DNA from: a virus
Strand: one strand, 5' to 3'
IMG/VR virus record: IMGVR_UViG_3300045988_000846
Coordinates: 1 to 18,128 of that record
DNA: 18,128 nucleotides
Each line of letters starts with the position of its first letter. Position 1 is the first letter of the stretch. The notes under the pieces were generated by a model. It saw only the letters and a list, made by a program, of their open reading frames with translations. It searched no databases and was not told where the DNA came from. This document shows, piece by piece, positions 1 to 18,128 of the stretch. The translations under genes and the position numbers were made by a program.

Positions 1-202
1 AAGGAGGGGAGGGGTCCCAGCAGCTATCCTTTTTCCACAACTGCTCTATCCTGTGTTTTGCATTGCTGTTGCTTTGTGTGTTTTTGTATTGCCGTTGTTC
101 TCTGTGTTTTTCGTTTCCGCTCTCTTTGTGTTCGTTTCCTTGTCTTGTTTTGTCTTCGTTTTTTTGTGTGTTTTGGGTGTGTTGTTTTTTGTGGCGTGTT
201 AT
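1..202. repeat. Left inverted terminal repeat (ITR-L), 202 bp
   Basis: Positions 1-202 (AAGGAGGGGAGGGGTCCCAGC...GTGGCGTGTTAT) are the exact reverse complement of 17927-18128, compared base by base. Identity breaks at 203 (G) versus the complement of 17926 (A). The repeat starts at the first base of the window. Confidence 0.97.
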
Positions 203-205
203 GAT
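197..205 (+). promoter_or_regulatory. Extended -10 promoter-like element TGtTATGAT straddling the ITR/unique boundary
   Basis: TG-n-TATGAT at 197-205. The first 6 nt lie inside the ITR and the last 3 in unique DNA. The predicted start near 212 gives a ~29-nt leader carrying AAGGAAGGAAG (222-232) before ATG 241. There is no good -35. Confidence 0.45.
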
Positions 206-240
206 GTGAGTATCAACCGATAAGGAAGGAAGTAAATAAA

Positions 241-441
241 ATGATTAACAACAACATCATCAAGGATTACGTTGAGGATTACATCTTAAATAGTAATCAA
301 TTCATTGATGAGTTTGACGTTGATGCGATTGTTGAAAATCTGCATCATGTGGCCTTGGTTAATGATATAACTATTGAGGGATATGACGATTGCGATTCGT
401 TTCCGGCTGATGATTTTACGGAAGCGTTCAAGGAAGCGTGA
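241..441 (+). CDS. Small, very acidic early protein (66 aa), function unknown; possible DNA-mimic or host-takeover protein
   Basis: ATG 241 is preceded by a strong SD (222-232). Composition is 17 Asp/Glu, 2 Lys and 0 Arg. The gene is visibly AT-rich compared with the genome core. It is the first gene inside the left ITR. Confidence 0.8.
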   Translation: MINNNIIKDYVEDYILNSNQFIDEFDVDAIVENLHHVALVNDITIEGYDDCDSFPADDFTEAFKEA

Positions 442-446
442 AGGAT

Positions 447-515
447 ATGTTTCTTTCTGTTCTCGTTATCTGCTCGTGTGTTGTTGGTGTTGTTGTCGTC
501 TTTGGCATGATATAG
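447..515 (+). CDS. Possible 22-codon hydrophobic mini-ORF (MFLSVLVICSCVVGVVVVFGMI)
   Basis: ATG 447 to TAG 513-515. AAGGA lies only 1 nt upstream, which is poor spacing. Its hydrophobicity could simply reflect the T/G-rich strand. Confidence 0.15.
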   Translation: MFLSVLVICSCVVGVVVVFGMI

Positions 516-518
516 AAT
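490..518 (+). promoter_or_regulatory. Putative early promoter (TTGTTG - 17 nt - TAGAAT; alternatively the TGaTATAGA extended -10 at 508-516)
   Basis: TTGTTG at 490-495, a 17-nt spacer, then TAGAAT at 513-518. The TGATATA core (508-514) is the same as in the boxes at 7218 and 9636. It lies in the 173-nt non-coding gap upstream of gene 615. Confidence 0.35.
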
Positions 519-535
519 CGTGTTAGAAGGTTGAA

Positions 536-604
536 ATGTTGGATATTGTTTGTTGGACGGCGGTTGTCGTTGTGGTTTCCGTCGTTTTAGTGTCGTATCT
601 GTGA
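536..604 (+). CDS. Possible 22-codon hydrophobic mini-ORF (MLDIVCWTAVVVVVSVVLVSYL)
   Basis: ATG 536 has AGAAGG (525-530) 5 nt upstream. TGA 602-604 overlaps the GTGAGG SD of gene 615. It lies downstream of the putative promoter at 490-518. It is too short for the ORF track. Confidence 0.3.
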   Translation: MLDIVCWTAVVVVVSVVLVSYL

Positions 605-614
605 GGTAAATGAA

Positions 615-5108: not shown

Positions 5109-5122
5109 CTTAAGAGGTGATT

Positions 5123-5467
5123 ATGGACGACATCGAAAACGACGACAGGCCGGACACCACGCCCGACACTGAACCGGACGTGGCCGCTGACGACAATACG
5201 CCGACCCCGGAACCTGAAACGCAGGACGATAACGAACCCGAGGACGCGGGCGACGACAAGAACGCCGACATGGCCGATCGGCTGAGCGCGTTGGAGGCGA
5301 CCGTGGCGGAATTGTCCAAAACCGTTGAGGCGATGCGCGACGCCGCCGCCGACCACGTGCTGAACGATGGCCCCGACGACAATGCAACGCCGGAATCGGA
5401 CGATGAAATGACCGACGACGACTACAACGGCACCTACAGCACGTTCGACGACCTATACGAAGACTGA
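5123..5467 (+). CDS. Putative scaffolding protein (phi29 gp7 position), 114 aa, extremely acidic
   Basis: ATG 5123 follows AAGAGG; the ORF is open from GTG 5117. It has Asp/Glu/Pro/Thr-rich flanks around a helical core (ADRLSALEATVAELSKTVEAMRDAAAD). It lies directly upstream of the major capsid gene. Confidence 0.7.
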   Translation: MDDIENDDRPDTTPDTEPDVAADDNTPTPEPETQDDNEPEDAGDDKNADMADRLSALEATVAELSKTVEAMRDAAADHVLNDGPDDNATPESDDEMTDDDYNGTYSTFDDLYED

Positions 5468-16782: not shown

Positions 16783-17570
16783 TGGACGGCGTGAAGTGGA
16801 TAGGCTCGCCAAACCACTACAGTGGACGAGCCGGACATAAGGTGACACACATCACCCTACATATTATGGCCGGTTTTCTGGCAGGTACCGATAGTGTGTT
16901 CTCACGTTCATCCAGTCAGGCGAGCGCACACTACGGCGTCGGAGCCGGTGGCGAAATACATCAATATGTTGACGAAACTAATGGCTCGTGGTCTGATGCC
17001 AATTACGAGTCAAACATGTCAACTATCAGCATCGAGCATGAAGGGGGTATAGCGCAAGCGCCATGCACGCAAGCATGTATCGACGCCAGTGCTCGACTTT
17101 GCGCCGATATAGCGCAACGTTACGGACTAGGCATGTTATGGCATGACGGGACACGTGGTAACGTATGGCTACATCGAGAAATCAGCGGCACCGACCACGC
17201 CACATGTCCAGACCTAGCACCAAACGGGCTACCATACCAGCAAGTGATCGACAAAGCCAACAAGATAATAGGAGGTACAACAATGGCTAGCGCAGGGGAT
17301 GAAGTTTGGAACTGGGCATACAAGCCAGACGGGAAAAACGCGACACCGGGCGGCAATATGTACAATCTACTTAACTACGAACTGCCGATACGCATTCGGG
17401 ACAGCATCATGCAATATAACTTCAAAAACACCGCGCCGGGGGGCAACGTTTACAACACTCTTTGCTTTGAAATACCCGGAATGCTGAAACAACTCGCCAA
17501 AACAATCGAAGAACAGCAAAAGCAAATCGATGCGCTGACCGAAAAAATCGACAAACTGCAAAAAATCTGA
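16782..17570 (+). CDS. Endolysin: N-acetylmuramoyl-L-alanine amidase (Amidase_2/PGRP type) with an unusual repeat plus coiled-coil C-terminus, 262 aa
   Basis: HITLHIMAG, SAHYGV, TISIEHEG and LHREISGTDHATCPD match the T7-lysozyme-type zinc amidase pattern (His, Tyr, His, Cys). The C-terminus has two ~18-aa repeats (ATPGGNMYNLLNYELPIR and TAPGGNVYNTLCFEIPGM), then LKQLAKTIEEQQKQIDALTEKIDKLQKI. Confidence 0.9.
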   Translation: MDGVKWIGSPNHYSGRAGHKVTHITLHIMAGFLAGTDSVFSRSSSQASAHYGVGAGGEIHQYVDETNGSWSDANYESNMSTISIEHEGGIAQAPCTQACIDASARLCADIAQRYGLGMLWHDGTRGNVWLHREISGTDHATCPDLAPNGLPYQQVIDKANKIIGGTTMASAGDEVWNWAYKPDGKNATPGGNMYNLLNYELPIRIRDSIMQYNFKNTAPGGNVYNTLCFEIPGMLKQLAKTIEEQQKQIDALTEKIDKLQKI

Positions 17571-17588
17571 CAAATAGCAACAGAGAAT

Positions 17589-17626
17589 AAGTAAAGCCCC
17601 TAGGATTACGCCTAGGGGGCTTACTT
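17589..17626. terminator. Bidirectional terminator-like hairpin between convergent genes
   Basis: The core stem pairs CCCCTAGG (17597-17604) with CCTAGGGG (17611-17618), with loop ATTACG. After a 2x2 internal loop the stem extends by 6 more bp, pairing AAGTAA (17589-17594) with TTACTT (17621-17626). It lies between the endolysin stop (17570) and the stop of the minus-strand gene (17635). Confidence 0.7.
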
Positions 17627-17634
17627 GTTATATA

Positions 17635-17892
17635 TCAGTCGCCGTTATCGATCGAGATAACATACTTGCGGCACGGACGCCCCTTTTTCGAGAGGCCCTG
17701 AGCAACCTCAATATAATCATAATCAAAGCTCAACATTAATTCAATAACCGAAGAGAGAGCAGAGTCAAAAGTGGTAACAGAGTCGTCAATCAAACCATTA
17801 TCACGAACAGTACCAGTATACACATCTTCAATACCGACTTTATATACATTATCCGGCTCAATCTCGATAACGTAAGCATTAAACTTATTCAT
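17635..17892 (-). CDS. Small acidic protein (85 aa) transcribed inward from the right ITR, function unknown
   Basis: The minus-strand ATG at 17892 is preceded by GGGAAAGGAAAAAA. The longer ORF-track start at 17919 would translate the SD region. It has 15 Asp/Glu and 8 Lys/Arg. It is AT-rich relative to the core. The N-terminal pattern FNAYVIEIEPDNVYKV faintly recalls HicB/UPF0150-type folds, which is very tentative. Confidence 0.75.
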   Translation of the reverse strand: MNKFNAYVIEIEPDNVYKVGIEDVYTGTVRDNGLIDDSVTTFDSALSSVIELMLSFDYDYIEVAQGLSKKGRPCRKYVISIDNGD

Positions 17893-17923
17893 TTTTTTCC
17901 TTTCCCTAGAAGCGGACAACTAC

Positions 17924-17932
17924 AGTATAACA
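17924..17932 (-). promoter_or_regulatory. Extended -10 TGtTATACT straddling the right ITR/unique boundary (mirror of 197-205)
   Basis: The minus strand reads ...GTGGCGTGTTATACTGTAG. TGtTAT comes from the ITR and ACT from unique DNA. The predicted start near 17917 gives a ~25-nt leader with an SD before ATG 17892. Confidence 0.45.
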
Positions 17933-18128
17933 CGCCACAAAAAACAACACACCCAAAACACACAAAAAAACGAAGACAAAACAAGACAAGGAAACGAACA
18001 CAAAGAGAGCGGAAACGAAAAACACAGAGAACAACGGCAATACAAAAACACACAAAGCAACAGCAATGCAAAACACAGGATAGAGCAGTTGTGGAAAAAG
18101 GATAGCTGCTGGGACCCCTCCCCTCCTT
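17927..18128. repeat. Right inverted terminal repeat (ITR-R), 202 bp
   Basis: It is the exact reverse complement of 1-202 and ends at the last base of the window. Confidence 0.97.

Follow-up and report, generated by a model that had tools for sequence, protein, structure and literature searches.

A hyper-acidic 66-residue protein in an exchangeable terminal cassette of phi29-like gut podophages, a candidate immediate-early decoy

The stretch analysed here, IMG/VR record IMGVR_UViG_3300045988_000846 (the window), is a whole linear genome of 18,128 bp bounded by an exact 202-bp inverted terminal repeat (ITR). It is a complete phi29-like, protein-primed podophage, with genes for a protein-primed family-B DNA polymerase, a protein that binds single-stranded DNA (SSB), a major head protein of phi29 type, upper and lower collar proteins, a gp16-type packaging ATPase, a holin and an endolysin, all on the plus strand, and with one further small gene on the minus strand at the right end. 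The ITR is homologous to those of relatives (87-90% identity). Our subject is the first gene of the left end, g66, which encodes a small and extremely acidic protein. The elements around it, with the opposite repeat, are the following.

1-202, no strand assigned: left ITR, T/G-rich, the exact reverse complement of 17927-18128, holding the upstream part of the terminal promoter.
17927-18128, no strand assigned: right ITR, a 202-nt exact repeat.
197-205, plus strand: putative extended -10 promoter TGtTATGAT, from consensus match and conservation, spanning the ITR boundary upstream of the first gene.
224-232, plus strand: strong Shine-Dalgarno (SD) sequence GGAAGGAAG, 8 nt before the g66 ATG.
241-441, plus strand: g66, gene for a 66-residue hyper-acidic protein, translation MINNNIIKDYVEDYILNSNQFIDEFDVDAIVENLHHVALVNDITIEGYDDCDSFPADDFTEAFKEA.
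244-610, plus strand: exchangeable cassette (the g66 open reading frame, ORF, and a 173-nt T/G-rich spacer), from pairwise DNA comparison with relatives.

Eleven Asp and six Glu make up 17 acidic residues, against two Lys, two His and no Arg, for a net charge of -15 and an isoelectric point (pI) of 4.05. The initial annotation, made from the letters of the sequence, had listed 17 Asp/Glu, 2 Lys, no Arg and a net charge of about -15, and recomputation reproduced these figures. It had also placed g66 first behind the left terminal promoter, as is indeed the case (it is the first ORF past the ITR, behind the extended -10 box and SD), and had rightly called the gene AT-rich relative to the genome core: its GC content is 37.3% (43% at third codon positions, GC3), against 53.8% for the genome and 54-61% for late genes (GC3 65-80%). 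Only the right-end terminal gene has a similarly low value (40%). Charge per residue is -0.227, compared with -0.239 for T7 Ocr, -0.154 for T7 gp5.9 and -0.125 for phi29 p56, and g66 is far too acidic for binding DNA itself. The sole window protein more acidic than g66 is a 116-residue product (5117-5467, plus strand; 35% Asp/Glu, net -36) encoded directly upstream of the major head gene and presumably the scaffold protein.

A search of 5.8 billion proteins returned g66 homologues in 173 clusters (71-91% identity), nearly all exactly 66 residues long and on contigs of about 16-19 kb. Across 22 codon-aligned genes, the median pairwise ratio of nonsynonymous to synonymous change (dN/dS) is 0.14, with mean proportions of synonymous and nonsynonymous differences (pS and pN) of 0.51 and 0.12, and variable columns at codon positions 1, 2 and 3 number 32, 24 and 54. 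The third-position excess and low dN/dS argue for constraint on the protein rather than on cis-acting DNA, and a reading of the conservation as a cis-acting role within the ITR was rejected on these grounds. Evidently, g66 is a real gene under strong purifying selection. Thirteen positions (9, 12, 13, 26, 28, 32, 46, 50, 52, 57, 58, 61 and 64) are at least 91% acidic among 104 full-length homologues, in which Cys51 is invariant, Lys8 is fixed and net charge stays within -12 to -20. An AlphaFold2 model built on a 62-sequence alignment is confident (predicted local distance difference test, pLDDT, 93.3; predicted template-modelling score, pTM, 0.77) and folds into a compact four-helix bundle, with predicted helices at residues 4-17, 27-40, 48-53 and 56-65. 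It looks like a small soluble protein, lacking any membrane segment or signal.

Searches for relatives outside this family came back empty. No family in Pfam, NCBIfam or PADLOC matched at E≤1 and none in PHROGs at E≤0.01; phmmer and profile searches of PDB sequences gave nothing significant (0 profile matches at E≤10), and Foldseek with the g66 model found no significant fold match (best E 6.3 in PDB and 2.2 in BFVD), the sole BFVD anti-sigma entry listed having E 5.9 and a TM-score of 0.31. Searching 50,697 phage records by tblastn yielded chance matches only (E≥0.3) and no phi29-group match, and a scan of 185,579 prokaryotic species genomes turned up no copy. Searched with a profile, 1.84 billion representative proteins yielded just 20, all of the same narrow family or frameshifted fragments. 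Scored against phi29 p56 and p17 and T7 Ocr and gp5.9, the g66 profile gave 0-2 bits: 1.7 for gp0.8/p56 (E 0.065-0.13 in databases of 4-8 sequences), 0.7 for p17 and 0 for Ocr. One diverged 66-residue relative (30% identity, net -16, hhalign probability 87%) occupies the same terminal slot in another phage relative and retains the DY..DY and CD-x-FP motifs without the His-His pair. The g66 family occurs in one group of gut podophages alone.

The signals in front of the gene are shared well beyond the window. The leader, ...AAGGAAAGGAAAAAATAAA-ATG, is conserved in relatives, and promoter, leader and SD are kept together in about 25 of them; across the three lineages described below, the terminal promoter takes the form TG(T/G)TAT(G/A)(A/G)T. 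In the window TGNTATRMT occurs six times against 1.8 expected, a count that 0 of 200 shuffles reach, and all six copies are oriented with transcription and stand at gene or RNA starts. Four of these extended -10 boxes, TGnTAT(A/G)(A/C)T, lie away from the termini (3363, 4929, 7218 and 9636, plus strand) and have no recognisable -35 element. A sigma-70 consensus scan, which demands a -35 element, accordingly returned no promoter on the plus strand, and the phage appears, from its motifs, to rely wholly on extended -10 promoters. The terminal copy would probably drive inward transcription of g66.

Comparison with three relatives that are 87-88% identical to the window elsewhere (L062, L084 and L085) delimits the cassette sharply. 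Homology covers the ITR, promoter, leader and SD, fails near the start codon (235-248) and returns at 607-611, before the gene at 615; the interval holds unrelated small genes in all three. The 173-nt T/G-rich spacer (442-614) falls inside the cassette. We do not claim it as a diverged copy of the ITR promoter, the alignment lying about two standard deviations above shuffles of low-complexity T/G-rich sequence.

Phages carrying g66 in IMG/VR belong to three deeply diverged lineages, compared here with the window.

Lineage A, window-like: structural proteins mostly more than 85% identical.
Lineage B, gene order as in the window: connector 45-48%, polymerase about 35% and terminal protein about 30% identical.
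Lineage C, about 16 kb with another gene order: connector about 29% identical, early genes unrecognisable.

Throughout these lineages g66 remains 66-92% identical to the window copy. Median g66 identity is 77% between A and B, compared with 80% within A and 82% within B, and for 7 of 22 copies the nearest neighbour lies in another lineage; connectors, by contrast, are 45-48% (A-B) or 29% (A-C) identical. Given that identity between lineages equals that within them, and that synonymous sites are not saturated (pS about 0.5), g66 must have moved between lineages after they diverged: it is a mobile accessory gene traded among the three. In lineage C (L013-L016, L021, L031-L034, L222-L301) the packaging ATPase stands apart from the lysis genes; for all its unrecognisable early genes, this lineage shares the terminal promoter, g66 and the 85-residue family described below.

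Connector-based scans identified at least 135 (A), 130 (B) and 211 (C) contigs, and a profile search of the fetched loci detected g66 in 12 of 80, 8 of 80 and 4 of 80, respectively. Restricted to contigs of at least 17 kb, the counts are 9 of 53 for A and 7 of 58 for B, and 4-5 of the 19 complete group-A genomes with real ITRs carry the gene, the window counted. Presence among relatives is thus about 12-25%, a fraction that is approximate because many contigs have incomplete ends. Many contigs flagged as having ITRs show a repeat of exactly 55, 99, 119 or 141 nt, which are assembler k-mer sizes; these look like clipped termini and not true ITRs, whose lengths in the clade range from about 200 to 690 bp.

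Wherever it occurs, g66 is terminus-proximal, reads inward and follows the conserved promoter and leader, and the end that it occupies varies. It lies at the early (replication-gene) end alone in the window and contigs 022824 and 053117, and at the late (endolysin) end alone in 007734, 002631 and 016630. Both ends carry it in 000661, 002365, 006903, 028413, 032762 and 082458, as well as in 034844 and 017596 (both cut off within the gene), hence in at least eight contigs, with the copies inside exact ITRs of 401-686 bp. The exact ITR terminates at the g66 stop codon in 002365, 006903 and 028413 (401-435 bp) and reaches past the gene in 032762 and 082458 (522-686 bp). An identical protein sequence (P0109) was recovered from different samples both beside early genes and beside the endolysin. 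At the late end of IMGVR_UViG_3300045988_000661 (L006, 47-610), promoter, leader and SD are tandemly doubled, so that g66 and the 85-residue gene each have their own identical copy, which suggests that cassettes are acquired together with their promoter. We saw no description of ITR-borne genes in phi29-like phages in literature that includes a 2024 review, in which p56, DNA mimics and anti-defence do not occur and ITRs appear only in connection with phi29's short repeat and a cited reference.

The right end of the window offers a counterpart to the g66 slot, with these features.

17924-17932, minus strand: putative right-end extended -10 promoter TGtTATACT, the same motif reading inward.
17635-17892, minus strand: g86R, 85 residues, net -7, the right-end counterpart of the g66 slot, unrelated to g66.
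17590-17625, no strand assigned: GC-rich hairpin (AAGCCCCCTAGG...CCTAGGGGCTTT) separating g86R from the endolysin gene.

Homologues of g86R (114 clusters) are spread across the same phage lineages. Its AlphaFold2 model (pLDDT 90.7) has the order beta-beta-beta-alpha-beta-beta and no match in PDB (best E 0.22), and kinship with g66 was rejected (hhalign probability 0.07%). The protein has a basic C-terminal patch (KKGRPCRKY...IDNGD). Its slot is held in relatives by a second g66 copy, or by g66 plus g86R. The hairpin is, from its sequence, a probable bidirectional terminator: where g66 lies at the late end, the same hairpin stands directly after it (L001, L008, L010, L012, L017, L019, L020, L022, L024 and L025) and also closes the convergent lysis operon.

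To survey the terminal slots we clustered ORFs from the outer 900 nt of A and B contigs that stand behind an extended -10 box and SD; the variable slots are the ends of L062-L221, equivalent to window positions 206-610 and 17520-17923. These ORFs fall into 39 clusters, with at least 10 unrelated small families, mostly acidic and each behind its own extended -10 promoter. The following families illustrate the range.

85-residue family (the window right-end gene): 28 contigs, median net charge -7.
81-residue family: 18 contigs, median net charge -11.
g66: 15 contigs, median net charge -16.
76-residue family: 13 contigs, median net charge -5.
118-residue family: 3 contigs, median net charge -16.
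83-residue family: 3 contigs, median net charge -13.
95-residue family: 2 contigs, median net charge -18.

In IMGVR_UViG_3300045988_016630 (L058, reverse strand), the terminal early genes include a C5 DNA methyltransferase-like gene (FSGIE..., GGSPCQAFSIAG), located at about 690-1600 from the terminus of the early end, and g66 is at the other end. Altogether, the slot contents resemble an arsenal for counter-defence or host takeover.

The endolysin shares 76% identity along its entire length with a gene from a Bifidobacterium angulatum metagenome-assembled genome and 52% with one from B. phasiani, for which reason the host is most likely a gut Bifidobacterium. For the polymerase, the nearest isolated phages are Bifidobacterium podophages (about 35% identity); whole-window megablast against the phage record collection gave no DNA-level match.

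Taking the above together, we propose that g66, an optional gene exchanged horizontally, encodes an immediate-early decoy aimed at a DNA-binding or defence protein of the host, and give this reading a probability of about 0.42; its early expression, its decoy mechanism and the identity of its target are what we infer. Immediately upon entry of a genome end into the Bifidobacterium cell, host RNA polymerase would fire the extended -10 promoter in the terminal repeat and g66 would be made, a compact four-helix protein with a surface saturated with positionally fixed carboxylates. Its terminal slot, often in both ITRs, would place it among the earliest expressed proteins whichever end enters first. 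It may then act stoichiometrically, filling the surface by which a host protein dangerous to entering or replicating phage DNA binds nucleic acid. The likeliest target would be a defence complex directed at DNA, of the restriction or another type, and a less likely one a repair enzyme or nucleoid protein; the mode of action may resemble that of Ocr, ArdA/sArdA, gp5.9 or p56 with an unrelated fold.

A protein too acidic to bind nucleic acid itself is more readily understood as a decoy for a DNA-binding host protein. That its partner belongs to the host rather than the phage is argued by the conservation of g66 where terminal protein and polymerase are about 30-35% identical or unrecognisable. 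Ocr-level charge density, accessory and mobile distribution, acidic and methyltransferase slot-mates and conservation beyond that of the replication proteins together favour a host-directed inhibitor, chiefly of counter-defence type. Along the same line, co-folding in the EVADES preprint predicts that DNA mimics interact with many defence proteins. The initial annotation had proposed a DNA-mimic or anti-defence candidate of separate evolutionary origin, the latter on account of AT-richness. A separate history is borne out by the swapping of the cassette between lineages, but low GC by itself is weak evidence of foreign origin for g66, since the ITR and all terminal early genes share it. As for mimicry, the charge density, accessory cassette and variable slot do fit a decoy, whereas the confident model matches no known mimic fold. 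Its remark that g66 lacks sequence similarity to p56 agrees with our profile score; the structure prediction that it suggested gave the four-helix model described above, and the homology search gave no confident match to a protein of unrelated function (Pfam, PHROGs, NCBIfam, PADLOC, PDB and BFVD).

Known systems resemble g66 in different respects. T7 Ocr (gp0.3), a DNA mimic that inhibits type I restriction-modification and BREX, is likewise the first gene from the entering end, all-helical and non-essential or accessory, with matching charge density and the same pI of 4.05. Ocr, an elongated helical dimer with carboxylates that follow the course of bent B-DNA, has 117 residues and no sequence, Pfam or fold similarity to g66, and, unlike T7, the g66 phage is protein-primed and carries the gene next to or inside an ITR. 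With regard to size, ArdA, sArdN and sArdC show that very small acidic proteins suffice against type I restriction-modification (PMC12548430). Single-domain sArdA proteins from Actinomycetota and Lactococcus, about one third of the ArdA length, block such systems (PMC12548430) and are frequent in Actinomycetota, to which the probable g66 host belongs; g66 has no ArdA match in Pfam or NCBIfam at E≤1 and no Foldseek match to ArdA structures. T7 gp5.9, a RecBCD inhibitor of 52 residues, is a helical, acidic decoy for a DNA-binding site (PMC9836394), and is of the same size class without sequence similarity to g66; RecBCD/AddAB is the less obvious target here because the terminal protein caps the genome ends. 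The p56 protein of phi29 is also a small, acidic, dispensable early product of a protein-primed podophage, but with half the charge density, and the predicted all-alpha fold of g66 has no PDB match at E<6. Its gene closes the left early operon distally and reads toward the terminus, whereas g66 stands behind the terminal promoter. The nearest parallel to an ITR-borne g66 is found in the T5 pre-early genes, which are duplicated in terminal repeats, expressed from the first-entering (first-step-transfer) DNA and devoted to host takeover and counter-defence. In T5 the repeats are direct, span about 10 kb and contain many genes, whereas those of the g66 phages are inverted, 0.2-0.7 kb long and hold at most one or two cassettes. 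Two-step entry of T5 is mentioned in work on phi29 p17 (PMC2771126).

Several points weigh against the decoy proposal. The confident g66 model resembles no known DNA-mimic or anti-defence fold, as the Foldseek values above indicate, and a 66-residue monomer is short for a duplex mimic. Small acidic early proteins also include anti-sigma factors and RNA polymerase inhibitors. Protection of the genome ends from exonucleases by the terminal protein removes one classic target, RecBCD/AddAB, and DNA mimics account for only 11 of the 268 anti-defence proteins catalogued (EVADES preprint). The closest positional analogue, phi29 p17, which the initial annotation had not named, is very acidic yet serves DNA internalisation and early replication. 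The promoter is assigned by consensus match and conservation only, and the two-end state comes from short-read metagenome assemblies, in which strains with g66 at opposite ends might have been co-assembled, though true duplication in both ITRs is the simpler reading because exact ITRs with different unique flanks recur independently.

The same properties could belong to a host-takeover factor directed against a host protein outside defence, such as sigma-A region 4 or RNA polymerase, a nucleoid protein or uracil-DNA glycosylase (UDG). A candidate mechanism is that of an AsiA- or Gp2-like binder which would disable -35-dependent host promoters and spare the extended -10 promoters of the phage. 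The recognisable phage promoters are of just this type, without -35, and for T4 AsiA extended -10 promoters are the class that survives blockade of sigma region 4. A small, helical, acidic and early-positioned protein would suit such a role, its preservation from one phage lineage to another suggests that the host target is itself conserved, and p56 provides the precedent of an acidic early protein in a protein-primed phage with UDG-vulnerable single-stranded replication intermediates (PMC4974454). However, most relatives with the same promoters lack g66, which puts it outside the basic transcription programme; neither Pfam or NCBIfam (E≤1) nor PHROGs yielded a match, anti-sigma and UDG-inhibitor families included, and the g66 model matched no AsiA, Gp2, p56 or Ugi structure in PDB, the profile score against p56 standing at 1.7 bits. 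We regard host takeover as rather unlikely.

Position argues for another analogy, with phi29 gene 17, which is equally the first inward gene at a terminal early promoter (C2); its product (166 residues, net -21, pI 4.3) is likewise strongly acidic and is made immediately on entry. On p17 depend the second step of DNA entry (PMC2771126) and, conditionally, the first replication rounds (PMC11476376), which raises the question of whether g66, made from the first DNA to enter, helps to internalise the genome, recruits replication factors to the origins in the first rounds, or both. A copy in both ITRs would then secure expression whichever end enters first. Yet g66 is an optional cassette, missing in about 75-88% of close relatives and not retained in the conserved early gene set of its lineage (4-5 of 19), and the structurally unrelated proteins that replace it in most relatives (e.g., the beta-rich g86R) ill fit a mechanical core function. 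Its conservation where terminal protein, polymerase and ITR have strongly diverged speaks against co-evolution with the replication machinery, and no sequence similarity to p17 was detected, so we find a p17-like role improbable. A part in inter-phage competition, superinfection exclusion, masking of defence triggers or escape from abortive infection, through another mobile element or a host sensor rather than a DNA-binding protein, would agree with an accessory, mobile, terminal gene that is patchy among co-circulating lineages apparently sharing a host genus, and with the many mutually unrelated families of the slot. Considering that g66 is small and soluble-looking, has no membrane segment or signal, and carries a negative charge so extreme and so fixed in position as is more usual in nucleic-acid mimics than in exclusion proteins, this role seems very improbable.

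Small acidic early proteins are already known as a kind of candidate decoy. New here are the g66 family itself, with a confident, unmatched fold and restricted to a single group of gut podophages, the terminal cassette slot with its sharp bounds and its own promoter, and the presence of g66 inside both ITRs in many relatives. One might go on to speculate, although as a whole we find it doubtful, that the ends of these phages are counter-defence islands trading promoter-equipped acidic cassettes, that g66 is a new four-helix DNA-mimic fold, and that its capture by both ITRs guarantees expression from either end.

Small acidic decoys are among the broadest-acting phage counter-defences and serve as tools for blocking DNA-binding proteins, a toolbox to which a new family of very small, confidently folded proteins with Ocr-level charge density would add. 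The source phages probably infect an important gut commensal genus whose genetics is hampered by restriction barriers. A terminal slot with at least 10 exchangeable small-protein families is a place to mine for host-interaction genes, and it poses, in a form open to testing, the question of how genome entry is polarised in phi29-like phages whose ITRs are long.

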